40,529 nt of DNA from Boseongicola sp. SB0662_bin_57 (lineage in GTDB: Bacteria; Pseudomonadota; Alphaproteobacteria; Rhodobacterales; Rhodobacteraceae). This document shows, piece by piece, positions 8,901-30,323 of this stretch. Both the position numbers and the translations under genes were made by a program. The number at the start of each line of letters is the position of its first letter. Within the stretch, counting starts at the first letter, position 1. Under the pieces are notes generated by a model. The model saw only the letters and a list, made by a program, of their open reading frames with translations, did no database searches and had not been told where the DNA came from. The stretch is taken from positions 1 to 40,529 of the forward strand of contig VXPN01000263.1 in assembly GCA_009839535.1 (NCBI GenBank), read 5' to 3'.

Positions 8901-9150
8901 GAACCTTAAGAAAGTCTGGTGCGATGTACTTATGTTCAATGGTGTTCAAGAGCCCTTGCCACCATGCATCCGTTATTTGTCCGTCTCTCAATCTGCCATA
9001 CGTATCCCGTAAGACATGTTGTAGAAGATCAGAATTGTAGCCTTTTCGACCCGCCGATCTTTCATTGTGAAGGCGTACAGCATGCGGTATCGTCGCGCTG
9101 AACGCCGATCGCAATGCAGCGGTGAATAGGGAAGATACTGCATCTGACAT
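2926..9150 (-). CDS. Giant uncharacterised protein (2074 aa): mostly alpha-helical/TPR-like with a central PIN-like acidic segment and no NTPase motif
   Basis: ORF track 2926-9204. I prefer the ATG at 9150 (MSDAVSSLF...), which lies 13 nt downstream of the res stop (TGA 9166-9164); the longer form would overlap res. There is no GxxxxGK[ST] anywhere. The mid-protein segment WTVGVDVTSVLVLHHLGILD...FSPDIFEHLF...ALCIDDRFLN resembles the conserved acidic positions of PIN-like nucleases (tentative). Confidence 0.75.
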   Translation of the reverse strand: MSDAVSSLFTAALRSAFSATIPHAVRLHNERSAGRKGYNSDLLQHVLRDTYGRLRDGQITDAWWQGLLNTIEHKYIAPDFLKVHAVKEWIRNNAVEEDFKTLATDQIMGSTSSNAEARKRLALAYSEHTGEQANRAKGPIDVVTGILAAGYISSMSSRERPLAGMFQRMHGDFNSRLDDFEEKHVNSLADLVTEKFPIVQQILSPFAEDELRDILALRSLESQTARQKILQLFERVNGGDLSTINESSKQDVFQWTARLCAERMETLAFAKDLRESLAKSEPSPNLAIIDALIREAEGDADGALRDLRDAGDQDSRSVWFGILMRAKGALRALKWFDQSGVVDQENFFSGPGWVDWAYASASCGRWEDAAATLPGSQPMWDEIPALAIAEGRINAALLLPDEFRNRVLDGPPLFFGIAPISSAAAAGHHARSLECFRRAEQILRGRIGKEWLNHLADWTLWLRLMEPDAGKRNAERERVGAEMADAETSVALVPFVHSFGIDYDRKPLEAYLDKRRELGGLDERARVAEFFVNRNKLRRERFKKYFEENEEHLQSIIPPALFVSTYIESILTDEDSLHDARRALERHRDSLDKHHFKRLEMMIDAYEGQDIRNELEEQYGKTDSIIDLRNLIEFLKRRNDREALRPLCLELFQRFPTEEIAIDVVASYSGPSFLDHERILSFLDECGDLLNHSEALLNAKSIALFHAGKYVEAEKANERSKQKRLTTENLLIGVKVAIASGNWAVLGGMVTAAWGLREQLDAFELVSLASLVGQESQSRERALQLLRLAADRAPDDAAVLAAVCWQFFRLGHEEEADPQWLLRAAELSTDDEGPVRSMSLRYVVEDWLPKRRKHLVEVDRKWTQGEIPIGMMADKFGVSLSRLLLDLSSKNAKEADGRHRVALPIIAAGRPDTEIEDDWTVGVDVTSVLVLHHLGILDASLDVFRHVKFSPDIFEHLFREKAEAHFHQPSRIAGAKQVLRLHDQRQIRTLNLEGAPPRWLVEETGRATAEVLQWARNEKAMAVCTRPIYAVGSLMQREANLGEYEDVTISLTSLCSWLKEDGRIEADAYGRICSVLRNCGDTEDSGIPSDLATRQFCFDDVVLDYLNAAHVLQPIVAALGKVLIRDSAFADMRALADEEESEDRVVSGIESIRRTITSRLEEGTASFLPQPAAQILKDAERSFRFKASASLLGGGSQCDALCIDDRFLNSHSHFIGSNDQAKPILTVLDVIKHLMKFDLMPQEDYIRVRHRLRAAGFAFVPLEAEEICHWLRATGVREGQTVESVELRVLRQSTALGDSLALTNWHQAFALVSNSRAACTAAISEMWHDTDLASEAVVAHTSWIWRNLMETIVPGHQALDFDEYGRLVGEVVSLRVGSVLLPLSSIATARKDDYANWIEQTVLQHLWPANSDRIHAALLNSRKAIEAIADHDTNQAAYGNLILELLPEKARALMFRDDPEFAKRSGYSAESVISIGPTIQIVDRDLFSAATAALVEGGEATALDLADTEMAVTYDGKSQMIRLSWLDAERATQEVDMADLCLLSPSSEVRLTAFDRIADRLGPTFESKDQLREEIGSAVPEFSTVSRLLEESFNGVAATQASIADKILGGKQVGPSDFVPESMEYFERFVAPPPVDQTANSFVSDTLAQHRCSLLGRELEGGLHICCLGAVHDELSPGQWLADESDDDVWSALRAANSELNPFSRLGALDVALYRQHDHRFRDFASKAVEQLLDENFGFDEERDVYGLLQIVGNFVLNRIGLLKDGATKPGYWKQLGAWMQAGYVVETMLRSRYTVDLGSLEKWAGQYMSAAGAYAGLVDARVEPMLFAAQMTSDRLRHEVLGRLEALRRRHEQNGREVPASGSIDGKLEELEKSGLKLALWFPGPLEGDRRPDRAPPDHVNEQIEELAQAKDGDIVLPLVTLSQLHCLNERQLELARLAVESACDAAPEMDVKETSRALQTLERASVVAAANRSASLCSSIGDGVVRISSLVTEKEVEVIPRILLQAAAALEEEHEWYSWLDKKLVEVVDMLPSHPNQSLYAFLDHLEEIGTILPVKRWFHARARSATLVGLA

Positions 9151-9163
9151 TTCTATCGACCCA

Positions 9164-11800
9164 TCATGGCGTTGTCGGAATTCGCAATGTACTGGAATTT
9201 GCAAAGTAGCGAGGGAGCTTGGCCTTCCACTCGCTCATCAGGATCAAGGCGCCCTCGACGGTTTCGCCGCTGTTAACCAATTCCAACTCGCCAACCGGCG
9301 TGGCATTGTCCCAACGGAAGTGATCCGAGAGGAAGGAAAGAACCTCCCGCTTGTAGGCCGTGTCGAGGTTGTCAAGCTGGTCGCCCTTGGTCTCGAGAGC
9401 CACGATCCGCCTGGCCGCTCCCTCACGCCGGACGGCAAAGATGAAGTCCGGGTAGATCTTCGCCGACTTCCACCCTTGGATGCCGTACTGCTTTCGCGCG
9501 ACGTTGCGGTGCCACCAGTCAAGCGTCTTCTCGCCGTCGATGTAGACCGCCACATCCCGCTCGTCACGGTTCATCTCGTTCTCGTAGACGGGCGAGAACA
9601 GGCTCCTTTCAAGCGGGCCGCCTGATTGGCTCGCGAGCTGGCGAGCGTTCTTTGGCTCAGTGGTCTCAACCCTTAAGGGCATTCGCCAGTTGCGGCCGTC
9701 GAGCCGCAAACGGAACTGAATGCGGCCCTCAAGCACCTCGTCCTTGAAATGGGCTTCGGCGCACGCGTTTCGCTTGACGTCTAGCCCCTTGCGCAGCTCT
9801 TCCACGATCAAGCTGGCGGTCCGGCCGAGCATGGCGTCGTCGAATCCTCGCGCCCGAAGTGCCGCCACCGTTGCGCCGACGATCTCGCGCCCCACGAAGG
9901 CGTTCTGAACGATGTCCGAGATCATCCGGACCGCGTGGGCCGGATCAAAGGCAAGGCTCTCCGGACTTTCAGTGACGGTCTTGCTGACGAACGGTTCGCC
10001 GCCCGTGTGCGCGATGCCGATCCTCTGGAGCTGGCTTTCCGCCGCTTGCGCGTTATCGGGCACGATCTCCGAGATTTCCTGCGGATCAAAGCCCCGCCAG
10101 TCGATCCTGGAGAGCAGATCCGTCTCGTAGTCTAGCTCGCGCGCGTCGCCACCTTCGACCACCATGACCTTCGGAAGATAGATTTCCGTTTTGGCGAAAG
10201 CCGGGCGGCGCTTGATCGGGCGGGGCGTGTCGCCGTTCCCGTCCTCGCCGTCCTGGGTCACGCTCAGGACCAGATCGCCGAGCCCGTCCCGTTCCAGGCC
10301 TTCCTTGATTCCGGCGACAACCGTCGCCGTGTTTGCGTGGTGCGTGATCACGTGGCACTCGTCGAGGGCCTCGACACCCGTCTTCAGGGCACCCGGCTGC
10401 CGGAGAATGCGGCCGACGAGCTGCGTCATGGCCTTCAGGTTGGAACTGGCAGCAAGGCTGCACAGCACGTAGGCGAACGGACAGTCCCAGCCCTCCTGAA
10501 GGGCCTGCTTGGTGACTATCGCCCGGACCCTGCTGGTCGAGGACAGAAGGTCCTGGTTCTCGGGGGCCTTCAGGTCGTTTTGCTGGGCCGTCTTGATCGC
10601 GATCTCCGCTTCATCGAAGCCGGCCGTCAGGAGCCATTCCTTCACGTCTTCGGCGTGGACATGGCCGCTTTCGCGCTGTTCGGCACCCGTGCGCTCGACC
10701 TGGATCAGCATGATCGGACGGATGTACCTGCCGGTTTCGGACAGCAGCGTCCGTGCTTCGGCATCCAGCGCCTGAAGCTTGGCCAGGGCGGCGTTCAGTG
10801 TCGCCTTCCAGTCGTTGCCCTGCCGGGGATCGAGGTTGAGCGGCATCTTGATCATGCCCTCCCGGTCCAGCTCGCGGCCTGTCACCTCGATCAGGACATT
10901 GGCGTAACGCCCGGCGTGATGTTTCCTCCTGCCGCCCGGCTTGACGTCCTGCGGCGTGGCGGTCAGCTCCAGGACGAAGCACGGATTGAAGCCGTAAAGC
11001 GTCCTGAACGCCAGGTCGGTGATGGCGCGGTGCCCTTCGTCCAGAACGACGACGGGACGGATGAGCCGCAAGGCGTTGCCAAGGGAGTCCTTCACCATCG
11101 GGAACATGTCGTCATAGGCGGCGAGGTTTGGAGTCGCCTCAAGCGCGGCCTTGTGCGCCAACTGCTCGCCCTCCGGCGGGAAGAAGCCATGCACGTCTCC
11201 CCGGTCCTGGAACATCTTCAGGGATTCCTGCGTCTCGCGGTTGGCTGACTGAAGCATGAGCAGCATCACGCAGAGATTGGATTCCACGTCTCGGGCGTCG
11301 AGACGGTCCGTCTTCTCCATGATCTTCACGCGTCCGGCGGCAGCGCGGTCGAGCGCCTGCCGGTAGGGATGCTGGCGGTTCTTCAGGTGCTTCAGGGTCT
11401 GCGTGTAGATCGCCTCGTTCGGCACGATCCACAGGACGAAGCCCGTGTTTTGTTCCAGATAGCGCCCCAGGATCCGGGACACGGACGAGATGGCAATCCA
11501 GGTCTTGCCGCCCGCCGTGGGCACCTTGAGAACGGCGTTCGGCACGGGGCGGTTGCGGCCGTCCCGTCTAGGCGAGAAAGGAATGTTCTTTCGGGACTTT
11601 GGCAGCCTGCGTTCCGAGCGAAGCACCTCCCATGCCTTCTCGGCTAAGTCGGGAATGGGAACGTCAAGATCGGGCTCGACGGCCGCAAGGGCCGCGATCC
11701 TGTCCGCCTTGCCCTTCTCCTCCTTGAGAACGTCGAGATAGCCTTCCAGCGCCGAGAACGCGCGATTCTGGTAGTCGAGTTTTCGAAAGCTGAAGCCCAA
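9164..11800 (-). CDS. res: Type III restriction-modification system, restriction subunit (Res; SF2 helicase plus C-terminal PD-(D/E)xK nuclease)
   Basis: Motif I is KVPTAGGKTWIA and motif II is VVVLDEGHRA (DEGH). Later helicase motifs are present (LIQVERTG, QEGWDCPFAYVL). The C-terminal nuclease signature is IYPDFIF...ALETKG. The track ORF starts at TTG 11914 and would overlap mod by about 110 nt. No ATG follows, so I take the in-frame TTG at 11800-11798, which sits 4 nt after the mod stop with GGAG upstream. The start is uncertain. Confidence 0.85.
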   Translation of the reverse strand: MGFSFRKLDYQNRAFSALEGYLDVLKEEKGKADRIAALAAVEPDLDVPIPDLAEKAWEVLRSERRLPKSRKNIPFSPRRDGRNRPVPNAVLKVPTAGGKTWIAISSVSRILGRYLEQNTGFVLWIVPNEAIYTQTLKHLKNRQHPYRQALDRAAAGRVKIMEKTDRLDARDVESNLCVMLLMLQSANRETQESLKMFQDRGDVHGFFPPEGEQLAHKAALEATPNLAAYDDMFPMVKDSLGNALRLIRPVVVLDEGHRAITDLAFRTLYGFNPCFVLELTATPQDVKPGGRRKHHAGRYANVLIEVTGRELDREGMIKMPLNLDPRQGNDWKATLNAALAKLQALDAEARTLLSETGRYIRPIMLIQVERTGAEQRESGHVHAEDVKEWLLTAGFDEAEIAIKTAQQNDLKAPENQDLLSSTSRVRAIVTKQALQEGWDCPFAYVLCSLAASSNLKAMTQLVGRILRQPGALKTGVEALDECHVITHHANTATVVAGIKEGLERDGLGDLVLSVTQDGEDGNGDTPRPIKRRPAFAKTEIYLPKVMVVEGGDARELDYETDLLSRIDWRGFDPQEISEIVPDNAQAAESQLQRIGIAHTGGEPFVSKTVTESPESLAFDPAHAVRMISDIVQNAFVGREIVGATVAALRARGFDDAMLGRTASLIVEELRKGLDVKRNACAEAHFKDEVLEGRIQFRLRLDGRNWRMPLRVETTEPKNARQLASQSGGPLERSLFSPVYENEMNRDERDVAVYIDGEKTLDWWHRNVARKQYGIQGWKSAKIYPDFIFAVRREGAARRIVALETKGDQLDNLDTAYKREVLSFLSDHFRWDNATPVGELELVNSGETVEGALILMSEWKAKLPRYFANSSTLRIPTTP

Positions 11801-11804
11801 GGGA

Positions 11805-13577
11805 TCAACTCCGGTCGATGCGATAGAGGGCGAAGGGCAGTGGCACAAATTCAACCGGGATGTTCTGCTCGGCCAGCATCTTCTGGCTGACGTACCTGGC
11901 TGGCGCGAACACAAGGTGCCGTGCCTCCGGATCCGTCTCTGCGAATTCCTTTGCCCGCTTGAGCGTCAACGCCGATTCCGGGGACTTGAGCCAGTCCAGG
12001 TCGGGCCTGTAGATCAACCAGACATGCTGACCCTCCGTCGCCCCGAGATGGAATTCGCTTTCGCGCATGACGTTCGGATCGAGAGCTCGGGCGGTCGCCA
12101 TGTGAAAGAGAACGGAGCCAATCGCGTCATAGGTCGGCAGCGTTTCGCCACGGAGCACCTTGTCCAGCTCTATCGGATCGCCAAGAGTGCAGTAGGTGAA
12201 GCTCCCGCCAAGGCCGTCGGTGCGTTCCTCGACGGCCTTCTCTCCCGTGACGATCAGCTCGCCGTCCGTCACGGTCTTCTTGATGGCGTCGTATTCGTGG
12301 CCGTGCAGGTTTTCGATCCCGTCAACGGATTCGTGGAGCTTTTGCCCCTGTTTGAGTTTGGTCCACGTCAGCTTTTCGCGGAGAAGCTCGGTGCGCTGCG
12401 TGCCCCGGTAAGCGTGGCCGTTGATCACACGGCGCACCCGCTCCGCAGTTAGCCTGTCCGCATAGTCTTCCATCTCGATCAGGATGAACCGGCGATTTCC
12501 GCCATCCCGCTTGTTTGCCTGCAAGACTGCCTGAGCAGTGGTGCCTGATCCAGCGAAACTGTCGAGGACCAGAGCGTCTTCCTTGGGATGTTGCGAGACC
12601 AGGAATTCAATCAGGTCCGGCGGTTTGGGAAATTCGAAGTCACGATTGCCCATTATCCGTTCAAAGGCGACAGTTCCATCGCGTGTGTGAATCGGCAACT
12701 CAATCACGCTGGATGTATTGGTATGGTCGCCAAGATCGTCGAGAAACACTTTCTCTCTGGGACGGCCCTTTGCATCTGGAGGCCAAAGCACGCGCCCTTC
12801 GTCGATCAGGCGTTTCATTCGTTCCTGACCATATCGCCATCCTCTCTTGGGGCAGCCGAAGTTGAGTCCGGTCTCCGGATCGATCAGGTCGTAATGCAAG
12901 TTTGGCCTTGCTTCCCTTGATGCCATGCCAACCATGTTGCCACTGGACCACGGTCCTCGCTCGTCTTCGTCGGGATTCTGGAAGCTGGCTCCAAGTCTTT
13001 GATCGCCGAGGATGCCCTTCCCCACGACAATGATGAATTCATGATCGTTGGAAAGCCCGCTCTTGTTCCGGTTGTCCTTGTTCTGACGCGACTTCCAGAC
13101 GAGCTGGCCTATGAAGTTTTCCGGGCCGAATATCTCCCAGACAAGATGAACGAGACGGGCGTTTTCGATGTCGTCGATCGAGATGAAGAGCAGTCCGTCA
13201 TCTGCCAGCAGCTCTCTCAGCAGCCGCAGCCTGGGCCACATCATGGCGCACCACTTGTCGTGACGTAGGCCGTCCTCGATTCCAACCGGATTGGATTCGA
13301 GCCATTCCCTGATCATTGGGGCGTTGACGTTGTCGTTGTAGCGCCAGCCTTCGTTGCCGGTGTTGTACGGCGGGTCTATGAAGATGCAGTCCACCTTTCC
13401 CGCGTAGAGCGGCATGAGCGCCTTGAGGGCGTGCAGGTTGTCTCCGTGAACGATCAGGTTGCCGTCGAGCGCCACAGGACCGATGCCCTTGCTCTCCTCT
13501 GGCACCAGCGGCCTGAACGGCACCGCAAGATGGTGGTTGTAGACAAACTCCTTGCCTTTGAAGTTAAGTTCCGTCAT
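11805..13577 (-). CDS. mod: Type III restriction-modification system, methyltransferase subunit (Mod; beta-class N6-adenine/N4-cytosine MTase)
   Basis: Motif IV FIDPPYNTGNEGW is N-terminal and the AdoMet motif I VLDSFAGSGTTAQAV is C-terminal, with a long variable (TRD-like) region between them. This is the Type III Mod order. The ATG at 13577 (MTELNFKGKEF) has GAGAGG upstream. The track's longer start is 13610. Confidence 0.9.
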   Translation of the reverse strand: MTELNFKGKEFVYNHHLAVPFRPLVPEESKGIGPVALDGNLIVHGDNLHALKALMPLYAGKVDCIFIDPPYNTGNEGWRYNDNVNAPMIREWLESNPVGIEDGLRHDKWCAMMWPRLRLLRELLADDGLLFISIDDIENARLVHLVWEIFGPENFIGQLVWKSRQNKDNRNKSGLSNDHEFIIVVGKGILGDQRLGASFQNPDEDERGPWSSGNMVGMASREARPNLHYDLIDPETGLNFGCPKRGWRYGQERMKRLIDEGRVLWPPDAKGRPREKVFLDDLGDHTNTSSVIELPIHTRDGTVAFERIMGNRDFEFPKPPDLIEFLVSQHPKEDALVLDSFAGSGTTAQAVLQANKRDGGNRRFILIEMEDYADRLTAERVRRVINGHAYRGTQRTELLREKLTWTKLKQGQKLHESVDGIENLHGHEYDAIKKTVTDGELIVTGEKAVEERTDGLGGSFTYCTLGDPIELDKVLRGETLPTYDAIGSVLFHMATARALDPNVMRESEFHLGATEGQHVWLIYRPDLDWLKSPESALTLKRAKEFAETDPEARHLVFAPARYVSQKMLAEQNIPVEFVPLPFALYRIDRS

Positions 13578-13760
13578 GCGTGCCTCTCTTGAAGAGCCGT
13601 CGCGCTGCATGAAAGCAGCCGCGGCTCGTCTGTATCATTCCAAAGCCAACTTGCGAGAGCCATCCTTTGTCAAGACCCGCAAATTGCCATGAGCCGCTCA
13701 CTCGTGCTGACCGTGGCCAACTCTTCGCCGGGCAAAACCCAACTCAATCCGGACATCGAC

Positions 13761-16700
13761 TTATCCGGAGCGCAGAGACCTGAGCCACTCCAGCGTCTTG
13801 AGGACGGGTGCGTTCTGCTGGTCCACCGGGATGTGGGGTGGTTCATCCAAGTCCAGGACTACGGTCGTCATGTCGTTGGTTGGTATTTCCCATGCGTTGA
13901 TGACGGCCAGATCACGCTTGCCTATTGGCAGGTCGAAAATGGGCTTTGGCGCCGCCTGCTCGTTTGGCATGTGTGCGGGCATCAGCACATACCGACCATG
14001 ACGCGCGTACTCCGCGAGGAACTGATCAAGGTTCTGTGTCGAATTCGGGTACATGCGATGGAAGCGTGACACAAATCCGAGGACATTCTCATCCGATAGG
14101 GGAACATTGTCCGGGTTTGGGCTGACCATCACGGCATACGCAGCAGGCCTGTCGCGCGATATGCCGCGAACGATCGTGATCTTGAGATCGTCCTTGAAGT
14201 CGTCATCGCCGTACCGTTTGCGCCAAGACCTGAAGATGTCTTTGGCGGCCGCAAGGTTCTTGTACACAAGTCCCAGCATGGGCGGCTGCATGTCGGGACC
14301 GGGCGGGGACCTCATGAAGAGGGTGGCGTACCATTTCGCCTTGTCCCACTTTTGCACATCAATGGGCGAGATCCAGCGCGTCTTCGAGTGCTTGCCTTTG
14401 GCCACATCCCGCAGTTCTTTGGGCGCAAGGCCTTCGCCACGCTTTGCGTTGCCAATCGACTTGATTGCATCTGGAACTGGTGCGGGGGGCCAAGCTTCCG
14501 TGCGTTTGACTTCATAGATGGGATCGGCAGGATCGATCCAATCGGCGAGCGAAAGCCGTGCGCGATCACCATGCAGTTCATCAAGCATCATGGGAACGTT
14601 AGAGAACGTCAGCGCGCGATCCAGGGCGCGTTCATCTTCGAACAGCGCCTTTCCCCACGTCTCGGCATCCAGAGGCGCAGCGAAGCGAAGGAAGATCTCG
14701 AGAACGGCATCCTTCATCCAACGCGGAAACGACAGCACGTCTTCCTTGGTCTTGTATTCCATGACCAAGCGATGCGTGATCGTACCGACCGGCTCGCCTT
14801 CAACATCGGAAAACGTCAGAACCGGGCTGAGGCCAACGTCATCGGACGGCATTACCCGCAGTTGCAAGTGGTCCACCTGAGGAAAGATGCGATGATCGAG
14901 ACTCGTCGCAAGCAAGGCTTCCAGTGACCCAAGGACGGCCTCGCCAATTCCGATGGAAACAAGATTGTTGGTGCAGGCCACCTCGATGCGGCACCCGAGC
15001 ACGTTGGATGAGAGCGTGACGGTTTCCCCAAGGGCGAAATCTGGAACCGGATAGTCCGCTTTCACGCCGGATTCGCGCAAGTCTCGCATGATGGTCTCTA
15101 CCCCTTCAGATGTTTCTTGGTCCGGCATCCAACCTTCCATTCTCAGGATGTCTTCATTGCCCATCAGGTAGAGCAGAGCGCAGCGTGACATCGGCAACGC
15201 GAGCCTTTCGAGGGCGTCGGGAAGTTGAGCGATGTCGCCCAATTCAGCGACGGGTGTTTGCAACAGCAGCGATGCGATCTGCGTCATGTGCGCCGCATGC
15301 ATCTGGTCGAGGCGGCGACGCTGCCCGTCAGTGCGCGCTTGTGCGTTGCGAACGATCAGCTCCAACTCGTGCGCACTCAAGATCTGTGGAACGCGACCGA
15401 GTTTCAATTCGGTATCGAAGTGCCTGGACAAGACAGAAGCCCGAAGCGCGCCAATGCTGCCATGCCTCTTGAAGTTCGAGAATTCCTGACTGACGGCGGC
15501 GAGGGTGTAGTTCCTGGCAGCCCACGGAAGGCCGACTTCTTCGAAGGCGAATCCTGCGCCTATCAAGGCGTCGACAAGGACGTCTTCGTACTCCTCCTTG
15601 ATGAGGAGCGTGAGGGCGCGGCCGAACCAGCGGATCGCTTCGCAGGGCAGTCCCTTTGCAAGCTTCTGGTACGCCCGTTGCACGTTCTTCCCTGCCGCCT
15701 CGCCTTCCCCGCTACGTGACGCGAGGGCATCGGTGATAGTTTCGAACAGCGTGTCGAATTCGTCGCTGTCAGCGATGAACTCGCCGATTTGTGTGAGGGC
15801 ATCTGCGATGCTGGTGAACGGGAATGTCCCTAGCCCTTCGGCTCGTTTGATGACGTCGGTGAACGAGACCCAGATGTCCTTGAGCGGGTCGTCGCGATGC
15901 TCAACTCCTTTTTCGGAGACGCGGGTCATCAGCAACATGGCTTCGGCATGTAGCGCGTTGTTTGGGCGGTTGGTCTGCACCGCCAGGGCTTCCAGCGCGG
16001 ACTTGAGTGCGGCGGTGCGGTCCTTGAGCTTTCCTTTCGATGCTTCCATCGAACCCGTATGAACACTCACTCGTATGAGGGGCAGCAAATTGCTCAGACG
16101 CTCCAGATCATTCGCATCGTCGGAACCGAGAGCTAGACGTTCGACATCGTCATAGAGTTCAGACGTGCGAAGGTGGTCCTCATGCCAGAAATGAGAGGTC
16201 CACGCCCACTCGTAGGCAATCGCGAGTTCGAGCCTTTTGAGGTATTTGTCTCGCGCGAGACGAAGTGCGCGATCGAAACGCCCGTTCACGTCGGCGCTCG
16301 AATGCTCCAATCCTCGAGCCAGAAGCGCGGCACGCCGTGCATCCTCGACCAGCGCGACAGATTGCCCCTGATACTGCGAGGCGTCAGCGATCCTTGCCTC
16401 AAGGGCCTCCAGTTCCGCCGAGCGTTTCGTATCACTTGGCCCCTGCTTCCTGGCTTGCTTCTCCGTACCCTTGCCAACGCCAAGCTCCTCGACGGCAATG
16501 GCCATGCTGTCGTGCTTGAAGACGCGGTCGAGCAGCCACGTGCGATCCAGAATTGTGACTGGAATGCCGTGCTCCTTTGTCAGCCCGTCCTGCAGGTCGG
16601 CCGATTTCTTCGCAGGGACGAACTGGTTCGTTACGCAGATGATCTGATCGTAATCTCGCTTGGTGCCAGCGATTGCGGCGACGTCAGACCTGATTTTCGG

Positions 16701-17084
16701 TCGCCAGTCCTTCTTGGCGCTGAACGCGAAGGCCTTGCGCTCGCCGGCCTTGTCGTTGTCGGGCACGTACCAGCGTGCAGAGACTTCACTCGACACGGGG
16801 AATGTCTCTGCGTCGGTCTTGCCGTCACCCCCTCCAATCGGACCCGTCTGAGGACGAATGTTCGGCGCGATGAACTTTTCGCAAAGGCGCTGCGCGAAAT
16901 TCTCGAATGCGGTTTCGTCCTTCTGGTTGGTGAGCGTATCGAGGTGGTGGGACAAAACTTCGCGGCCGACCTCGTATTCCACTTCCGACACTGAATCGGA
17001 GAACAGGTCGGGGTGGCGGTCGCGCATGTAGCGGGACGGCGCATACTTCGTTTCAACGGGTGCGGTCTTTGCTTGTTCGGTCAT
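13761..17084 (-). CDS. Uncharacterised 1107-aa protein: N-terminal Mrr-like PD-(D/E)xK nuclease fold, helical-repeat middle, unknown C-terminal domain, no NTPase
   Basis: The N-terminus FENFAQRLCEKFIAPNIRPQTGPIGGGDGKTDAE...RKAFAFSAKKDW...IICVTNQFV fits the Mrr-type pattern (FE..h...L, G.GDGG.D, h.QxK-like SAKK). It is followed by about 500 aa of TPR-like helices and a mixed C-terminal region. The gene ends 183 nt upstream of mod on the same strand. Confidence 0.75.
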   Translation of the reverse strand: MTEQAKTAPVETKYAPSRYMRDRHPDLFSDSVSEVEYEVGREVLSHHLDTLTNQKDETAFENFAQRLCEKFIAPNIRPQTGPIGGGDGKTDAETFPVSSEVSARWYVPDNDKAGERKAFAFSAKKDWRPKIRSDVAAIAGTKRDYDQIICVTNQFVPAKKSADLQDGLTKEHGIPVTILDRTWLLDRVFKHDSMAIAVEELGVGKGTEKQARKQGPSDTKRSAELEALEARIADASQYQGQSVALVEDARRAALLARGLEHSSADVNGRFDRALRLARDKYLKRLELAIAYEWAWTSHFWHEDHLRTSELYDDVERLALGSDDANDLERLSNLLPLIRVSVHTGSMEASKGKLKDRTAALKSALEALAVQTNRPNNALHAEAMLLMTRVSEKGVEHRDDPLKDIWVSFTDVIKRAEGLGTFPFTSIADALTQIGEFIADSDEFDTLFETITDALASRSGEGEAAGKNVQRAYQKLAKGLPCEAIRWFGRALTLLIKEEYEDVLVDALIGAGFAFEEVGLPWAARNYTLAAVSQEFSNFKRHGSIGALRASVLSRHFDTELKLGRVPQILSAHELELIVRNAQARTDGQRRRLDQMHAAHMTQIASLLLQTPVAELGDIAQLPDALERLALPMSRCALLYLMGNEDILRMEGWMPDQETSEGVETIMRDLRESGVKADYPVPDFALGETVTLSSNVLGCRIEVACTNNLVSIGIGEAVLGSLEALLATSLDHRIFPQVDHLQLRVMPSDDVGLSPVLTFSDVEGEPVGTITHRLVMEYKTKEDVLSFPRWMKDAVLEIFLRFAAPLDAETWGKALFEDERALDRALTFSNVPMMLDELHGDRARLSLADWIDPADPIYEVKRTEAWPPAPVPDAIKSIGNAKRGEGLAPKELRDVAKGKHSKTRWISPIDVQKWDKAKWYATLFMRSPPGPDMQPPMLGLVYKNLAAAKDIFRSWRKRYGDDDFKDDLKITIVRGISRDRPAAYAVMVSPNPDNVPLSDENVLGFVSRFHRMYPNSTQNLDQFLAEYARHGRYVLMPAHMPNEQAAPKPIFDLPIGKRDLAVINAWEIPTNDMTTVVLDLDEPPHIPVDQQNAPVLKTLEWLRSLRSG

Positions 17085-17266
17085 GGGTCAACAACTTGGG
17101 ATGTAGCACCACTTAAGAAGTAGTGGTCGTTATGGAAAGCCCCAAATGTAGCGTACGACTCGTGAAGGTCTACGCTAAACGGCCGCTCAACGCGCCCGAC
17201 GCAGCGGTGGTCCAATTTCTCTTCAGATGTCGTCTGGTGGCGTAGCGGAATTCCGTAGAAGGTTGC

Positions 17267-17485
17267 TCAACACCGCTCGAATTCGGGGAAGATCCCGCGG
17301 TCGTGCTCGGCTCCCTGGTCCCGGACCAGGCCGAGCTCCCGCCCCAGCGTCTCCTGCCGCCTGCACCACGGCGACGGGTTCCAGGACATGGACTCGCGGT
17401 GCAGCGCGTGAAGCGTCGCCTTCGCCCTCTCCCTCGCCGCGCCGCCGGGCAGCCGCTCCATGACCGGCCCCTTGAGCGTCGGCAC
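17267..17485 (-). CDS. Small hypothetical protein (64-72 aa)
   Basis: Chosen from several overlapping ORFs because third-codon positions are almost all G/C in this frame (MPTLKGPVMERLPGGAARERAKATLHALHRESMSWNPSPW...). No family is recognised. It lies at the low-coordinate end of the very high-GC mobilization block. Confidence 0.35.
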   Translation of the reverse strand: MPTLKGPVMERLPGGAARERAKATLHALHRESMSWNPSPWCRRQETLGRELGLVRDQGAEHDRGIFPEFERC

Positions 17486-17728
17486 GGCAAATGATGGTGC
17501 GGCTTTCAGATTGTTCGATGGTCTTTGTGAGGTGTCGTTCGGTCAACGTTGGCGCAGCAAGTCGTTCCGGACGGGCGGAGCCTGACCACCTTGAGATCGT
17601 TGAGGGCGAGGCGATCGGCGGCCTCGAGGCCGGGTTCCGGATCGTGCGGGAGCGGCAGCGTTCGTGTCGCCGGCCAAGGCCGGATTTGGGTTGGGCGGCG
17701 GTTCCGGGAATCGGGACCGGCGAGTCCG

Positions 17729-18424
17729 TCAAAATGACGGCGGGGCCACGTTGATCCTGCAGGACACGATCCCGCCGCGCTCCCTGGCCGACTCCACGCA
17801 CCTGTCAAGGGATTCGCGGTCATGCCTGTATATCCTGTTCGCGCGGACGAGGTTTGAATGGGACTTGCGGTCGGAGTAGTAGAGAATGTCCAGTCCCGTC
17901 TGCCAGGACGTCTCGGAATTCGCCGCGCGCCAGAACCAGCTGGCGTGCACGGGGTGAACGGCGACCGCGGCGACGAGCCACAGGACAGCCATCGCGCCGG
18001 CCCCGGCCGCGAGGAACGCCATGTTCCGCCTGTGCTGCCTGCGGGCGTCCCGGTCCCGCTTGAGCGCCTCGCCGACCATGGCGGTCGCGGCGTCGAGCGC
18101 CTTCCTCGACTTTGCGGCCTCCTCCCGGAAAAGGGCGACCGCGCTGGCGGCCGCCGCGTCCATCACGGCGGCATGGTCCTCCGCCGTGGTGGCGAGCGCC
18201 GGCGCGGCCCCGACGGCCTTGATCCCCTCGGTGTTGGCCTTGACAGCCTTCGCCAACGCGCCGATGTCGCTCCCGTAGTCCGCCGGGGTCTCCCTCTCGT
18301 CAAGCAGCTCGTAGATCGCCTCCAGGGCCTTGCGCTGCACCGACATCTCCGCGACGAGGTCGGCGATCGTGCTCGCCCGCCCAGGCCCGCCGTCCTGCTG
18401 CATCCGTCCGTCCCTCTCCGTCAT
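17729..18424 (-). CDS. Hypothetical coiled-coil protein with one predicted TM helix, downstream of the relaxase
   Basis: The ATG at 18424 has GGGAGG 7 nt upstream and lies 17 nt after the relaxase stop. The hydrophobic stretch is MAFLAAGAGAMAVLWLVAAVAV. Composition is typical of relaxase-adjacent accessory proteins. Function unknown. Confidence 0.6.
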   Translation of the reverse strand: MTERDGRMQQDGGPGRASTIADLVAEMSVQRKALEAIYELLDERETPADYGSDIGALAKAVKANTEGIKAVGAAPALATTAEDHAAVMDAAAASAVALFREEAAKSRKALDAATAMVGEALKRDRDARRQHRRNMAFLAAGAGAMAVLWLVAAVAVHPVHASWFWRAANSETSWQTGLDILYYSDRKSHSNLVRANRIYRHDRESLDRCVESARERGGIVSCRINVAPPSF

Positions 18425-18440
18425 CCGCCGTCCTCCCGCC

Positions 18441-21400
18441 TCAGCATATCTCGGCGCCCAGGCTGCGTTGGGCGCTGAGCGACCGCGCCCGCTCCGCCCG
18501 CAGCCGCTCCGTGCTTTCGGGCAGCTTCGCGTGAAGCAGTCCCTCCGCGGCCTCCCGCGGCACCTCGCCGCCCGACGCCAGCCGCGCCTCGCCGGACTCC
18601 AGGAGCGCCTTGGCCGGCCCGTCCTTGTCGAGATCGCGGGAGAGGCCCTTCAGCGCCCGGCGCACGTCGCGGAGCCCGACCTTGCGGGCCTCGTAGAGCG
18701 CCTCCTGCTCCGCGACCGTCTCGTTCCAGCGCTCGACGAACCGCTCGATCCGCCCGGCCGGCGAGCGTTCGAACCTCTCCTGCCCGGAGACGGCGTCCTT
18801 GAGCCGCGCGGACAGCGCCTTGCCCTTGAGGTCCTGCACCTCCTCGCGCAGGGCCCCGTCGCGCCTCAGCGCCGCGGCCAGCCTGTCCCTCGCGCCCGGG
18901 CGCGCCTTCTCGAGTTGGGCCGCCGCGTCCTTGAGCGCTTTCCGCTGGCCCTGCAGGGGCTCGAGGCCTTGCTCCCGATGCCTCAGGATCGAGGCCGCGG
19001 CCCGCCCGTAGCCGATCAGGGCCCGCTCGTACCGGGTTCGCCGCAGCGGGTCCGCCTCCGGGTCCGGCGGAGGCGGGATGCCGGCCAGGCGGGCCTCGGA
19101 GCGCGCGGGCGTCGCCTCCTCGCGTCCCGACCGCGAAAGCCGGTCCTGGCCAGGCGCGGCGGCCGTCGCCGGGAGCGACCGGCGGATTCTCGCGGCCTCG
19201 TCAGGCATGGCCTCGAGATGGGGAACATGCGGGCTGCCCTTCGCCAGCATCGCGTTGGCCTCCGCCACGATCATCGCGCCCTCCTCCCGCAGGGCGCGGC
19301 GGTCCGGATCCGCAGGGTCGCGGGAAGCGGACGGAATCCCGACCTCCCGCCGCGCCTGCCAGCGGCCGGCGCGGCGGGACAGGTCGCGTACCTCGCCAGC
19401 CAGCGCCTCCTGCCGGTCGCGCGTTTCCTTCCACTCGACGACGGCCCGGGCGGAACCCGCATCAAGTCCCTCAGCGCCTTCGAGCCGATCGCCCAGCCGG
19501 GCCGTATCCGCCCAGCCCGCGCAGTGAAGCTCCGGCACGGAGTCCCTTCGCGCGCACTCCCGCAGCGCATGCCAGCCACGCCGGAACCGTCCCGAATCGT
19601 CCAGCGTGCGGACGCGCCCGATCGCCGCGACGCCCTCGCGAAGGCCGGCCTCCCCTGGCACGGCCTCACGGTCCGGACGGTCGTGACGGTCGTGATGTCC
19701 GTTACGCTGCCATCCGTCCTGCATCGCGCGCGCCTCGTCCAGCAGCGCCGCACCGTCTTTCCGCCACGCCGCGTGCCCTGGCATGTCCTCCGGGAAGCGG
19801 CCTGCCGCCTTGGCCGCCCAGCCGAGCTCCGGCCACCTGCGCCAGTGGGCGCGCACCCGCGCCGCGAGGTCGCGTTCCTTGCGCTCCTCCGAGATCCGGC
19901 GCTCGTGCCCCTCCAGCATCGCGTCCAGCGTCCGCCGCATGTCCGGCGGCAGATCCTCGATCGCGGACAGCGCCGCCGCCCGCGCCATCACCTCCGCATG
20001 TTCGCGAAGGTCACGGGAATCCGTGCCGGCCTCCTCCGCGCGCCGCTCCAGCTCGCGCCAGTCCGCGACCAGCTCCTCGAACGTCTCCGGGTCGATGACG
20101 GGCGGCCGCTCCGGATCGATGCCCAGCGCCTCCAGCGCGCCGTCCCCCTGTCCGGGCCGGCCCTCCAGCGCCTCCACGAGCCCCTCGCGGTCGTCGGTCA
20201 GCAGCAGGAACTCCTCCGAGGCGCGGCTGAGCTCGACATGGAACAGCGCCTGGTCCACCGCGCCCGCCGAATCCAGCACCGCGATCGCCGAGCGCGCCGT
20301 CGCGCCCTGCGCGGCGTGGACCGTGGTGCAGTAGGCGTGGTCCAGGTGCCGGAGCTGCACGTCCTTCCCCGAAAGCGAGAAGGCGTGCCCCTCCGTGTCG
20401 CGGAACCGCACGCGCTGGCCCCCGATGTCCAGCACCTCCGCCTCGCCGCCGTTGACGAGGCCTTGCCGGCCATGGGAGGCCTTCCGGTTGCGGGTCCAGC
20501 GGATCCGGTCGCCGGCGCGGATCTCGATCTCCTCGGTGTCGTGCAGCCGGCACCACCAGGCGCTGTTGCCCGAGGGCCGGAAGCTCCGCTCGCCGCCGGG
20601 CGTCGCCAGCACGACCCTTCCGTCCTCCACGCCCGTGACGATGCAGACGTCGTCCTGGCGGCAGCCGTAGGCGTCGCGGTGGAACACGACCGTGTCCCCT
20701 TCCTCCCAGCTGCGGACGTCGGCCGCCTGCGCCCGCGTCAGCCGCCGGTCGACCAGCCGGTCGATGGCAAGCGACCGTCCGTGCAGCGCGCCCTCCGCCG
20801 CGAGCCCCTCGCGCACGGCGGCGTTGACCTCGCGACGGATCGCGTGGGTGGGCGCCATGATCGCGGTGTCCGTCCTCTCCTCCGGCCCGAGCGCCAGCCA
20901 GCGCCGTCCCGCCTCCGCGCCGAGCTGTCCGCGCGGGACCTCGCGCACCCGCTCGCCGAGGATCTCCGTCGCCTCGCCCGGCGCGCCCTCCCTGGACTGC
21001 CTGACGGCCTCACGGAGCGCCGGGTCGCGCTGGCGCAGCACCTCGTCCATGACGACGGTCTCCATGCCCGCCCGCTGCAGGAGCCGGAACGGCTGGCCCG
21101 CGTCCACGGCGCGCAGCTGCGCCGTGTCGCCCACGAGCGCCACCCTTGCCACGCCGAGCGCCCGCGAGATTCGCAGGAGCGCCTCCATGCGCGCGGTGTC
21201 GACCATCGACGCCTCGTCGACCGCGAGGAGCGCGCCCCGGAACTCCTCCCGCCCCCGCACCAGCCGGTCCGGATCGGAGAGGTCTCCGTGGCGAACGAGG
21301 AACCGCTGCAGCGTCCAGGCCTCGACGCCCGCCTCCCGCGCCAGCACCCGCGCGGCGGAGGCCGATGGCGCGAGGCCCAGGATCCTGCGTTCCCCCGCGA

Positions 21401-22949
21401 GCACCGCGGCCTCGCGGAGCATCGCGGTCTTGCCGCTCCCGGCATGGCCCTGCACGCCGACGACCTTGTCCCGCGCGAGCAGCAGCGTCCGCACCGCCTT
21501 CCGCTGGCCGTCCGTGAGACGGCCGCCCTCCAGCCTCGCCGCGACCGCCGCCTCGTCGGCAAGCGGGACGGCCCTTCCGCGCCCCTCGCGCATCAGCGCC
21601 AGAAGCCGCCGCTCCGCCTTCACCGCCCGGTCGGTGACGAAGGCGCGGTCCGCGCCCCGGCGGACGGTCTCCACCAGCTCGCCCTCGCGCACGAGCCGCG
21701 CGACGGCGGCGTCGATGTCGGCGAGCGTCCAGCGCCCCGGCGCGTGGCCGAGCGCCACGGCCCGGATCTCCGTCTCGGGAATCACCGTGCGCCGCTCCTC
21801 CGCGTGCGCCACCGCGCGCGCCACCGCCTCCAGCGGCCCGGTCTCCGGCTCCCGCGACAGCCGCTCCGGGGCCGACGGCCTGCCCGTGCGCCGGCCCTTC
21901 CTCGGCGCCCTGGCGCCGCGCGGCAGCTTCGGCACGGCGGGCACGCGCTTGCGGTTCCGGATCACGTTCGCCGGCAGGTCCGGCGGCGGCACGGGCGGGA
22001 TCTCCGCGCGCGCGCCGGTCTCTGGATCGACGGGCCGGGGCGGGGCAAGCGCCATCCTGTCGCGGTCGAGCCCGAGGGCGCGGGCGCGCTCCCGCCACTC
22101 GGTGACGAGCTCGGCCAGGCCGCGGTCCCGCTTCCGCCTGCGCGTGTGCAGCGCCGCCATCTGCGCGAGCGCCGGGGTGTACGGAAGCCCCAGCCGCTCC
22201 AGGCGGTCGAGGATCGCCCGACGCCGTCCGGAGAACGCCATCAGGAACGAGCGGTCGTAGCCCGCCAGCTCGAACCCGGGCACGTTGCCGACCATCGTCG
22301 GCGCCGTCGCCATCCCCAGCGCCTGGAGCCGGCGGGCCAGCTCGTTGCGGTAGAAGGCCCCGATCAGCCTCTGGCTGCGCCGGATTCGGGTCGGCTCGAC
22401 GCTGCGCCATGCGCCCGCCTCGTTCCGGGTGACGTTGGCCAGGACGCAGTGCGTGTGCAGCTGCGGGTCGAGGTCGCGGCTCGACAGGTGCCGGAACCCG
22501 GCGACGGCCATGCCGTCCGCCTTCACCCGGGGCCGGCGTCGCGTTGCGGGGTCCCAGCCGCGCGTCTCCAGCAGCTCCGCCTCGATCCAGTCCAGCGTCG
22601 CGCGCACCGCGTCGTCATGCGCCCGGATCACCCGCCGGTCGCCGGCGACCAGCGCCTCCAGCGACACCGACTTCGGGGCCGAGAAGGTGACGTCCCAGCC
22701 GGGGCGGTGCTCGCGCGCGCCCTCGCGCATCCGCCCGAGCAGGACACCCTTGTCGGGCATCTCGCCCGAAAGCAGCCCCGCGAAGCGCTTCGGGTGCACG
22801 TGGCCCCTGAGCCCCAGCGCGCCCGCCGCATTGCCGTGCCAGAAGCTCGCCTGCCGGTGCTCGGGATCGTCCTTCACGTAGTATCCGTCCCGCTCGTAGT
22901 ACGAGAGCGCCGCCGTCGCGGAGGCGAGGCTGACGACCGTCGCGACCAT
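18441..22949 (-). CDS. MOBF-family conjugative relaxase-helicase (TrwC/TraI-like relaxase domain plus RecD-like helicase plus long coiled C-terminal extension), about 1502 aa
   Basis: Relaxase motifs: ALSYYERDGYYVKDD (Tyr pairs), DVTFSAPKSVS, FRHLSSRDLDPQLHTHCVLANVT (HxH metal site). Helicase motifs: GVQGHAGSGKTAML (Walker A), LLAVDEASMVD (Walker B), VALVGDTAQLRAVDAG, CTTVHAAQGAT. I take the ATG at 22949 (MVATVVSLAS) with GGGGAG upstream. The track start at 23174 adds an Arg/Pro-rich extension that looks spurious. Confidence 0.9.
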   Translation of the reverse strand: MVATVVSLASATAALSYYERDGYYVKDDPEHRQASFWHGNAAGALGLRGHVHPKRFAGLLSGEMPDKGVLLGRMREGAREHRPGWDVTFSAPKSVSLEALVAGDRRVIRAHDDAVRATLDWIEAELLETRGWDPATRRRPRVKADGMAVAGFRHLSSRDLDPQLHTHCVLANVTRNEAGAWRSVEPTRIRRSQRLIGAFYRNELARRLQALGMATAPTMVGNVPGFELAGYDRSFLMAFSGRRRAILDRLERLGLPYTPALAQMAALHTRRRKRDRGLAELVTEWRERARALGLDRDRMALAPPRPVDPETGARAEIPPVPPPDLPANVIRNRKRVPAVPKLPRGARAPRKGRRTGRPSAPERLSREPETGPLEAVARAVAHAEERRTVIPETEIRAVALGHAPGRWTLADIDAAVARLVREGELVETVRRGADRAFVTDRAVKAERRLLALMREGRGRAVPLADEAAVAARLEGGRLTDGQRKAVRTLLLARDKVVGVQGHAGSGKTAMLREAAVLAGERRILGLAPSASAARVLAREAGVEAWTLQRFLVRHGDLSDPDRLVRGREEFRGALLAVDEASMVDTARMEALLRISRALGVARVALVGDTAQLRAVDAGQPFRLLQRAGMETVVMDEVLRQRDPALREAVRQSREGAPGEATEILGERVREVPRGQLGAEAGRRWLALGPEERTDTAIMAPTHAIRREVNAAVREGLAAEGALHGRSLAIDRLVDRRLTRAQAADVRSWEEGDTVVFHRDAYGCRQDDVCIVTGVEDGRVVLATPGGERSFRPSGNSAWWCRLHDTEEIEIRAGDRIRWTRNRKASHGRQGLVNGGEAEVLDIGGQRVRFRDTEGHAFSLSGKDVQLRHLDHAYCTTVHAAQGATARSAIAVLDSAGAVDQALFHVELSRASEEFLLLTDDREGLVEALEGRPGQGDGALEALGIDPERPPVIDPETFEELVADWRELERRAEEAGTDSRDLREHAEVMARAAALSAIEDLPPDMRRTLDAMLEGHERRISEERKERDLAARVRAHWRRWPELGWAAKAAGRFPEDMPGHAAWRKDGAALLDEARAMQDGWQRNGHHDRHDRPDREAVPGEAGLREGVAAIGRVRTLDDSGRFRRGWHALRECARRDSVPELHCAGWADTARLGDRLEGAEGLDAGSARAVVEWKETRDRQEALAGEVRDLSRRAGRWQARREVGIPSASRDPADPDRRALREEGAMIVAEANAMLAKGSPHVPHLEAMPDEAARIRRSLPATAAAPGQDRLSRSGREEATPARSEARLAGIPPPPDPEADPLRRTRYERALIGYGRAAASILRHREQGLEPLQGQRKALKDAAAQLEKARPGARDRLAAALRRDGALREEVQDLKGKALSARLKDAVSGQERFERSPAGRIERFVERWNETVAEQEALYEARKVGLRDVRRALKGLSRDLDKDGPAKALLESGEARLASGGEVPREAAEGLLHAKLPESTERLRAERARSLSAQRSLGAEIC

Positions 22950-23201
22950 CCGTTCAGGCTCCCCGCAAGGCGGCGGCCAGGACGGAGCCGGAAAGGGCCG
23001 GGCCGCACGGAACGGCATGCAGGGGCGGGGCGCCATGCGCGGACGGTCCGGGATGCGGACCCGCCAACGGACACGGGGATCGGCAGCGCGACGGCAACGG
23101 GCAGGCCTGCCCGGCCCTCGCGGAAGCGCGGAAGCGGAGTCCGGGCGGTCCTCCGTCGCCATGTTGCCGTGCACGGCGACGGCCGGCGACGGCGCGGCGG
23201 T

Positions 23202-23915
23202 TCAGAATCCGAGCCATCGGAGAAGCCGGTCGGGATGGTCCGTCCACGTCGCCAGCGCCATCCCCGCGACGAAAGCGGCGCACGGCCAGAGGACGGGCAG
23301 CGGCCGGCGGGACCGCGCCTCCTCCGTCTTCCGGAGGAGCGCGGACAGGCTCGTCGAGACCGCGTCCAGGCCGGCCCCGGCTTCCTCCCGGAGACCGTCG
23401 ACGTCCGCCTTGATCCCGGCCGCGACGTCCCCGGTCCTGGCCGCGACGTCGAGGATCGCCTCGCGGTCCCCGGCCAGTTGCCTGGAAAGCCGCTCCGGCA
23501 AGCGGACGAGCGTCTCGCGGTCCTTGCGCAGCTCCGCCTCGATCGCTTCGGCGGCGACCTGGAGCCGTGCGGCGTGCGCGGCGACCAGCGCGGACGGCGA
23601 GTCCGGGCCGCCGTGCCCGGCGACCGTCTCCGCGACACGCGCGACGAGCCTGTCGCTCCAGTCGTCGAGCTCCTCCCGCGTCATCGGCCCGGGCCGTGCG
23701 GAGACCGCTTCGCCAACACGTTCGATGATCCTCGATTCCAGGCCCTCCAGGTCCTTCCGCGTCAATGCGGCCTCGCCCGACGCGGCCATCGCGTCGCCGA
23801 GCCTCGCGATCTCGTCCCTGACCGCCTCCAGCGCCGCGGCGCCCCCGGCCGGCCGCGTCGCCATCAGGTCCGTCGCGGACGGCCCGCGCTGCCCCGTGGC
23901 CCGCGTCCCGCTCAT
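23202..23915 (-). CDS. Hypothetical coiled-coil protein with a C-terminal TM helix (relaxosome/transfer accessory candidate)
   Basis: Its ATG overlaps the stop of the upstream RHH gene (ATGA at 23915-23912). It has long Ala/Glu/Arg-rich helices, then PLPVLWPCAAFVAGMALATW. Confidence 0.55.
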   Translation of the reverse strand: MSGTRATGQRGPSATDLMATRPAGGAAALEAVRDEIARLGDAMAASGEAALTRKDLEGLESRIIERVGEAVSARPGPMTREELDDWSDRLVARVAETVAGHGGPDSPSALVAAHAARLQVAAEAIEAELRKDRETLVRLPERLSRQLAGDREAILDVAARTGDVAAGIKADVDGLREEAGAGLDAVSTSLSALLRKTEEARSRRPLPVLWPCAAFVAGMALATWTDHPDRLLRWLGF

Positions 23916-30056: not shown

Positions 30057-30323
30057 CCCGGCACCATACAACTCTCGGACAGGAAATAGAAATTCCAGCT
30101 GAATTCGAATGATCCGAAATCTGCCTGCCGTTTGATACCACAGCGAGCAAACGGGCCCCCAGATGTCGATCCGAAACATAAGTATGTCAACACTTTGAAC
30201 GATTTCGAGCGACCCCATGTCCTAAAGCGTTGCCTCGCCGCTCGAAACGGAACGGCGGGATTGCAAGCACTTGGCTCCGAAGCCTGAATTGCAGTCCTCG
30301 CCTCTCCGGATATGTCCGCCCGC
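30057..30323 (-). promoter_or_regulatory. CRISPR leader
   Basis: A 267-nt lower-GC non-coding stretch between the cas2 stop and the conserved end of the array. The perfect repeats abut it and the degenerate repeats lie at the far end. Confidence 0.65.

Follow-up and report, generated by a model that had tools for sequence, protein, structure and literature searches.

Antiphage proteins of the Avs/STAND type consist of a nuclease effector, a nucleoside triphosphatase (NTPase) switch and a repeat sensor, in this order. DSR1 and DSR2, proteins of approximately 1000-1200 amino acids (aa), carry an N-terminal effector, which is a SIR2 NADase, followed by a long helical-repeat sensor and are not known to have an NTPase, and single-gene candidates combining a nuclease with repeats are now common. 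Upx is also devoid of an NTPase; it combines a large sensor with a divergent PD-(D/E)xK nuclease and senses the phage terminase (PMC13601566), and DSR1 and Avs7 have a common sensor that detects the phage major capsid protein (PMC13581612). Here we analyzed a 40,529-nucleotide (nt) stretch of DNA from Boseongicola sp. SB0662_bin_57 (contig VXPN01000263.1, positions 1 to 40,529; hereafter the window), in which a 1107-aa protein (hereafter the target protein) is encoded next to a Type III restriction-modification (RM) system. Sequence comparison and structure modelling suggested, with a probability of about 0.5, that the target protein is a stand-alone, horizontally mobile, single-chain sensor-nuclease defence protein that works without an ATPase.

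When compared with these systems, the target protein was found to combine a presumed effector and a large sensor-like region in one chain, with neither an NTPase nor an obligate partner. It resembles the Avs proteins with Mrr or Cap4 effectors in its presumed N-terminal nuclease, its tetratricopeptide repeat (TPR)-like sensor region and its occurrence in defence islands and on mobile elements, but the STAND NTPase module is missing. Like Upx, it is one large polypeptide with a big presumed sensor, a putative divergent PD-(D/E)xK nuclease, no NTPase and a broad but patchy distribution. Upx has its sensor at the N-terminus and its nuclease, with an intact ExK motif (E1176), at the C-terminus, whereas the presumed nuclease of the target protein is N-terminal and reads S/T-x-K/Q; the sensor of Upx has been described as acting by beta-augmentation, while the body of the target protein is TPR-like. 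DSR1 and DSR2 have the N-terminal effector and the long helical-repeat sensor without an NTPase in common with the target protein, which differs in its presumed nuclease in place of the SIR2 NADase and in an additional two-lobed alpha/beta C-terminus. No similarity to DSR1 or DSR2 was detected by Pfam and PADLOC sequence scans or by Foldseek, and no PADLOC family, PDB sequence or fold match related the target protein to any known NTPase-free sensor-effector protein. The PADLOC scan, which returned no family for the target protein, speaks only indirectly against a sequence similarity to Upx, as the presence of a Upx model in that library was not checked. An earlier, preliminary description of the sequence had regarded the NTPase-less single-chain design as unusual. 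This was true relative to Avs proteins; because precedents exist in Upx and DSR1, the NTPase-free layout is not a categorically new design.

The target protein belongs to a family that was invisible to the databases used here. Neither the whole protein nor any of its three regions gave a match in Pfam, NCBIfam, PADLOC or PHROGs, and the same scans including 26 family members and 75 relatives of the N-terminal domain (N-domain) gave nothing relevant. Among PDB sequences, no match was obtained at E <= 10 with the single sequence, with a 73-sequence family profile or with a profile of the wider N-domain superfamily. Megablast of the target region against plasmids gave no match, and no description of the family was found in literature searches.

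The AlphaFold2 model, calculated with 73 homologs as input, had a mean predicted local distance difference test score (pLDDT) of 87.7 and a predicted template modelling score (pTM) of 0.75. It bore out the three-part layout of the preliminary description, namely an N-terminal alpha/beta domain, a helical body and a C-terminal alpha/beta region (Table 1). As in Avs proteins, a presumed N-terminal effector (residues 25-215) is followed by a repeat region of sensor type (TPR-like, residues 216-675), but the central STAND NTPase of the NACHT/NB-ARC type, by which Avs proteins are also defined, was not found. No conserved Walker A motif was present among 251 full-length homologs (identity down to 29%), in 12 of which scattered matches occurred by chance, in agreement with the absence of a P-loop noted earlier. 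No NTPase family in Pfam, NCBIfam or PADLOC matched the target protein, no NTPase fold was found among the Foldseek matches, and the region between the presumed effector and the C-terminal lobes was modelled without any beta strand. The segment GGGDGKT in the N-domain was considered as a cryptic P-loop and rejected, since paralogs have G and R where the target protein has K89 and T90, and since the loop connects two strands.

The N-domain was the most conserved part of the family, with a mean column entropy of 1.59 bits as compared with 1.95-2.5 bits elsewhere; the body and the C-terminal lobes were more variable than this presumed effector. The three motifs pointed out in the preliminary description (FE, GGGDGKTD and FAFSAKK) were all present in it. 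Secondary structure assignment of the model by DSSP gave, in order, a helix (residues 57-71), three strands (76-78, 92-94 and 117-122), a helix (127-140), a strand (147-152), a helix (158-172) and a strand (176-179), and this order in the model fits the alpha-beta-beta-beta-alpha-beta core of the restriction-endonuclease fold. The hidden Markov model (HMM) search proposed earlier for the N-terminal nuclease family, on the other hand, gave no match to Pfam Mrr_cat (PF04471) or PF13156 at E <= 10, either with the whole protein or with the isolated N-domain, and Mrr_cat matched none of the 26 family members or 75 N-domain relatives. The Foldseek search with the full model yielded TPR proteins only and was uninformative on the N-domain.

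The resemblance of the N-domain to Mrr_cat became detectable by profile-profile alignment with hhalign. The probability was below 2% when the single EcoKMrr sequence or a shallow set of EcoKMrr-like sequences was used. A diverse Mrr_cat alignment, composed of relatives of EcoKMrr, eleven Mrr_cat enzymes encoded on plasmids (from Bacillus to Halomicrobium) and two further enzymes from the loci studied, aligned with the N-domain over 111 colinear columns covering positions 3-119 of 122, with a score of 28.4, a P value of 4.8e-4 and a probability of 32%. The controls scored 12.1 (reversed profile), at most 14.8 (30 column shuffles) and 9.5-13.2 (other domains of the target protein). In this alignment the FE helix was paired with the FE of Mrr, D87 and D91 with GDgGiD, S122 with the Q of QxK, K124/125 with its K, VTNQ with VTTS, and ILDRTW with LiDgerL. 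The target protein and Mrr_cat (PF04471) accordingly have in common the FE helix, a G-x-G-D-x-x-x-D loop, an x-K motif on strand beta-3, a VT(N/T)xF strand and a final hDxxxL. The target protein differs from Mrr_cat in lying below the detection of Pfam/HMMER, in having S/T at the Q/E position of QxK, in its non-conserved lysine and in the additional invariant residues E93, K130 and D134; it also lacks the N-terminal winged-helix DNA-binding domain of EcoKMrr. These comparisons and the model make a divergent Mrr_cat-like restriction-endonuclease fold likely, with homology to Mrr_cat plausible and not proven. The earlier assignment as an Mrr-type PD-(D/E)xK nuclease was thus partly retained: a remote, colinear resemblance stood clearly above the controls, while the HMM match, the E/Q of ExK and a conserved lysine were absent.

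Conservation within the N-domain pointed to a particular set of residues. In the full-length homologs, S122, K130 and D134 were kept in 251 of 251, D87 and D91 in 250 and E93 in 246, while K124 of FAFSAKK, which had been taken for the lysine of ExK, was conserved in only 85%. D91 lies at the start of strand beta-2, which is the site of the aspartate of the PD motif, and is aligned with GDgGiD of Mrr_cat. The catalytic pattern D...(D/E/Q)xK is not complete, as S/T122 occupies its E/Q position and beta-3 reads S/T-x-(K/Q). A wider superfamily set of 166 N-domains including paralogous families showed the same tendency: D87, D91, E93, K130 and D134 were found in 100%, E61 in 96% and D180 in 97%; position 122 was always S or T and never D, E or Q, and position 124 was mostly Q. 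Cfr10I and NgoMIV are enzymes with spatially rearranged active sites, and by analogy with them the N-domain may have a relocated active site involving E93 and K130/D134.

Two paralogous families have the N-domain of the target protein with the motif GGDQGRDxE ... ACT ... KIRxD, and their C-termini are different. The hhalign probabilities between the target family and these two families were 96.8% and 98.2%, and one of the two also has part of the helical body. The same N-domain is found at the front of further long helical proteins whose C-termini differ, and a modular effector would be expected to show this. One of these paralogs (1016 aa, L015:5959-9009) is located on the Mycobacterium gordonae plasmid p1, where a Shedu nuclease and an Mrr_cat enzyme are its neighbours, and another (980 aa, L016:5977-8919) on the Agrobacterium tumefaciens plasmid pAt1D1609b, next to a Schlafen/AlbA_2 ATP-binding protein and to a Tn3 element; DUF4238 and HEPN genes were also found near paralogs. 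Copies truncated by insertion sequences (IS) or split by frameshifts occur among the paralogs as well (L017, L018). Stand-alone N-domain proteins of approximately 200-260 aa were considered and rejected, as, of the two examined on long contigs, one was a copy truncated by an IS and the other a long gene that had been split.

Several features of the remainder of the protein would fit a sensor. Its middle part was purely helical in the model and had TPR proteins as its best PDB matches by Foldseek, in line with the TPR-like helices recognized previously. The matches of the full model (PDB and BFVD) included LGN/Pins, OGT and SPINDLY, with probabilities up to 1.0 and weak E-values (E >= 3.7e-3). 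This body is strongly acidic (median net charge approximately -16), as is C-terminal lobe 1 (approximately -10), and the acidity argues against DNA binding by the body. The C-terminal part, described previously as an unrecognised mixed domain, could be resolved into two alpha/beta lobes and a loop (residues 676-1107), and it still gave no confident fold match. A separate model of residues 655-1107 (pLDDT 87, pTM 0.83) had no match in PDB at E <= 1e-3 by Foldseek. The best fold matches, the catalytic domains of M1 and M61 zincin aminopeptidases, were weak (E approximately 1e-2 over 120-165 columns). This resemblance falls on lobe 1, which is the most variable folded region of the protein, and no HExxH motif is present in the target protein. 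Lobe 2 had no structural match in PDB by Foldseek, and its residues H899, W913, W918 and Y983 were near-invariant among the 251 homologs.

The family proved to be large and widely distributed. A word-indexed search retrieved 418 relatives, of which the best listed were nearly all full-length at approximately 1,100 aa. Apart from a few that UniRef had named automatically, for instance "Restriction endonuclease type IV Mrr domain-containing" or "Tetratricopeptide repeat protein", all were named hypothetical. When 1.84 billion cluster representatives were searched exhaustively with a profile, the result was 2,935 clusters (50% identity) at E <= 1e-3 and 1,056 at E <= 1e-30, and among the best 150 of the 2,935 nearly all were approximately 1,100 aa in length and matched the profile from end to end. 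A genome scan with one genome per species confirmed 169 loci, and the locus counts below refer to the best 80 of them. Their hosts were Alpha- and Betaproteobacteria, Bacteroidota, Verrucomicrobiota, Acidobacteriota, Chloroflexota, Nitrospirota, Saccharibacteria, Chlamydiae, Lentisphaerae and two archaea; Firmicutes and Cyanobacteria are also among the hosts of the family, and plasmid copies were found in Agrobacterium, Nostoc, Cupriavidus and Cohnella, among others. Homologs from Rhodobacteraceae, Burkholderia, Sphingomonas and a verrucomicrobial metagenome-assembled genome (MAG) are 80-89% identical. As such identities cross class and phylum boundaries, the sequences point to horizontal transfer of the family.

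Full-length homologs with approximately 29-31% identity were detected in a Nanohalarchaeota MAG (L057), a Methanobacteriaceae MAG (L065) and Saccharibacteria (L071 and L091). Archaeal and candidate phyla radiation hosts represent an unusually wide range for a protein of approximately 1,100 aa, and the MAGs may be contaminated. In Burkholderia pseudomallei (the cluster of P0020), many genomes have the gene either in two parts, encoding 632 aa and 462 aa, or truncated in another way, and intact 1110-aa copies coexist with the split ones in the same cluster. Such disrupted sequences suggest frequent inactivation of genes of the target family.

As for the genomic setting, the neighbourhoods of homologs supported the expectation of defence islands, together with mobile elements. 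One homolog lies on a mobilisable island that also encodes MobA, TraG, a resolvase and an integrase; another, in B. pseudomallei, adjoins an integrase, a relaxase and ParE; others are found in integrase islands; one is 2.7 kb away from a Pycsar system; and one adjoins a 1798-aa DEAD/MZB helicase. P2-like prophage tail modules end with a homolog in Methylocystis and in Agrobacterium, and GmrSD and HD genes are near the Agrobacterium copy. These two prophage homologs (Methylocystis rosea and Agrobacterium pusense) are located directly downstream, on the same strand, of Dam-type (MethyltransfD12) genes (L004:8874-9686 and L005:9013-9852), after the tail genes gpU-gpX-gpD. A Dam methyltransferase as a conserved partner was rejected, since tblastn detected it at 0 of the 80 loci. 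Clustering of 1,053 ORFs (open reading frames) from the 80 loci showed that the commonest neighbours were large serine recombinases (12 loci), ABC ATPases (8), relaxases (5) and IS3 transposases (5), followed by Fic (5), coupling proteins (TraG, 4), OLD/AAA_15 (3) and Type I HsdR (3). No neighbour family recurred at a fixed position.

These observations led us to favour a one-chain sensor-effector, because a conserved, catalytic-looking head is reused on other bodies and because it is joined here to a variable acidic TPR body and C-terminal lobes in a family with a patchy cross-phylum distribution and defence genes as company. We propose that the TPR-like body and the two lobes would bind a trigger derived from the invader, which is most likely to be a phage protein, and that this binding would relieve autoinhibition or drive oligomerisation without hydrolysis of NTP. 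The divergent Mrr-like nuclease at the N-terminus would then be activated. Its site would be a rearranged one, to which the beta1-beta2 loop and strand would contribute D87/D91/E93, beta-3 S/T122 and the next helix K130/D134, and cleavage of DNA by the nuclease would stop the infection or kill the infected cell. More tentatively, and with somewhat less confidence than in this function itself, the family could represent widespread NTPase-independent immune receptors having a new clade of restriction endonucleases with a relocated site (D-x3-D-x-E, S/T, K-x3-D), TPR repeats with a new two-lobed trigger module, possibly a pseudo-zincin, and a head reused on at least two other bodies.

Several results weigh against a sensor-nuclease in defence. 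No PADLOC or PHROG model matched the target protein, the N-domain had no significant Pfam or PDB sequence match, and its hhalign probability with Mrr_cat was just 28-32%. With the canonical (D/E)xK lost from its sequence, the N-domain could be non-catalytic or have another activity. The defence-island setting was judged from approximately 20 annotated loci and the clustering of the 80 loci, without a statistical test, and some homologs, such as one singleton among the annotated loci, stand by themselves between housekeeping genes.

If the target protein does act in defence, it adds a common, phylogenetically broad single-gene system missed by current defence finders (PADLOC v2), and provides a third class of examples in which an immune sensor would activate its effector with no NTPase switch; signalling of ligand binding by a TPR sensor without STAND oligomerisation would then be directly testable. 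The N-domain is a candidate for a new clade of restriction endonucleases whose catalytic constellation is unusual. Should the target protein not act in defence, the family still ranks among the larger protein families of mobile elements that lack any annotation.

It is unlikely, to our judgement, that the target protein is instead a stand-alone Type IV-like or DNA-sensing nuclease, in which the C-terminal lobes would read a modified base or structure of foreign DNA and the TPR body would scaffold oligomers, with no protein trigger. Such a function would agree with the resemblance of the N-domain to Mrr_cat, the catalytic domain of Type IV enzymes, with the near-invariant H899, W913, W918 and Y983 of lobe 2, residues that could make up an aromatic pocket, and with the methyltransferases found directly before the two prophage homologs and, as mod, directly after the copy in the window; RM genes also occur near the gene at several loci. 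However, neither Pfam nor Foldseek recognized a fold for DNA binding or for the reading of modifications (winged helix-turn-helix, SRA, EVE or YTH), the body and lobe 1 are both strongly acidic, and an adjacent methyltransferase homologous to Mod of the window or to the two Dam-type enzymes is rare (Dam 0/80 and Mod 3/80 by tblastn).

A non-immune role also appeared rather improbable. The target protein would in this case be a factor for maintenance or DNA processing of mobile elements (addiction, exclusion or recombination), or a scaffold with an inactive N-domain of the restriction-endonuclease fold. Relaxases, coupling proteins, recombinases and integrases are indeed often close to the gene, no known defence model matched, and the canonical ExK motif is lost, as might be compared with Pfam NA-iREase1, which comprises inactive restriction-endonuclease domains at the N-termini of NACHT proteins. 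The invariance of D87, D91, E93, K130 and D134 across distant paralogs nevertheless argues for catalysis. Some copies of the gene are found in prophages, and one is a singleton at a distance from conjugation genes. Copies that are split or disrupted by IS are common, as would be the case for cargo that is costly and dispensable, and other defence genes are near many loci.

The preliminary description had further raised the possibility that the target protein acts in concert with the neighbouring Type III enzymes, and had placed the ORF directly upstream of the methyltransferase gene (mod). The latter was correct: 150 nt separate the stop codon of the target ORF from the ATG of mod, both genes are on the same strand, no terminator-like site lies between them, and the closest relative, found on the syntenic sister element L019 (89% identity), has the same arrangement. 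The functional connection was not upheld. By tblastn, Type III mod/res genes were found within 10 kb at only three of the 80 loci, namely L019 and two distant Flavobacteriia (L061 and L077), where they lie within 5 kb and on the opposite strand; a Type III system was present at 0 of 9 homolog loci with gene annotation, and there is no conserved neighbour family. Type III systems, moreover, need no subunit other than Mod and Res. The target protein is very improbable as an accessory subunit or regulator of the adjacent system; the linkage is incidental, and the gene is an autonomous, mobile, single-gene unit.

Table 1. Features of the target protein and its surroundings in the window; residue numbers refer to the target protein.
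Feature	Position in window	Strand	Basis or remark
Target ORF, 1107 aa + stop, complete, ATG start	13761..17084	(-)	unannotated family of ~1100-aa proteins
N-terminal alpha/beta domain, residues 25-215, presumed effector, probably divergent Mrr_cat-like	16440..17012	(-)	model, entropy, hhalign
Loop G84-G-G-D87-G-K-T-D91-A-E93	16806..16835	(-)	conservation, hhalign; pLDDT low at 82-88
Strand beta-3 and next helix, F119-A-F-S122-A-K124-K...W127...K130...D134	16683..16730	(-)	conservation, hhalign
All-helical TPR-like body, residues 216-675	15060..16439	(-)	AlphaFold2, Foldseek
C-terminal lobe 1, residues 676-840, alpha/beta	14565..15059	(-)	separate model, Foldseek
Variable, poorly structured linker, residues 841-899	14388..14564	(-)	models, conservation
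C-terminal lobe 2, residues 900-1107, alpha/beta	13764..14387	(-)	models, conservation
Type III RM methyltransferase (mod), neighbour outside the unit	11805..13610	(-)	PADLOC MTase_III 1.7e-220
Type III RM restriction subunit (res), neighbour outside the unit	9164..11914	(-)	2.5e-177
2092-aa ORF immediately downstream of res	2926-9204	(-)	listed TTG start overlaps res 3' end by 41 nt
192-aa ORF directly upstream of the target ORF	17223-17801	(-)	no database match; 5' end overlaps DUF6118 gene
DUF6118 gene, abuts relaxase gene	17729-18424	(-)	
TrwC relaxase	18441..23174		Pfam
CRISPR array, at least 31 repeats (GCTTCAATGAAGCCGGGGCGAAAACGCCCCGGATGC)	27811-30060		period 73-74 nt; degenerate towards 27.8 kb
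Cas4-Cas1 fusion	30627-33173		
Cas3 with C-terminal HD domain	33334-36261		
GSU0054-family protein	36240-37916		

The other genes in the window show that it is a mobile-element defence region of plasmid- or ICE-like (integrative and conjugative element-like) character. The CRISPR array and the cas genes form a type I-U/I-G-like locus on the same element as the target gene. The 192-aa ORF and the DUF6118 gene between the target ORF and the relaxase gene were found by tblastn at none of the 80 homolog loci. The 2092-aa ORF gave a single Pfam signal, HTH_upst_double_PIN (residues 864-928, 1.9e-10), together with a sub-threshold PIN-TPR-GreABC. It had no PADLOC, NCBIfam or PHROG match and was absent by tblastn from all 80 homolog loci including the syntenic L019, and its sequence makes it a candidate for a giant uncharacterised conflict-system protein.

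The element is compositionally mosaic. The G+C content is 74-78% over positions 18000-25000, where the TrwC relaxase is encoded, as compared with 55-60% at 1-17 kb, where the target gene, the 2092-aa gene and mod are located, and with 60-66% beyond 26 kb. On the strand opposite to the relaxase gene, this gene is overlapped by long ORFs that are spurious.

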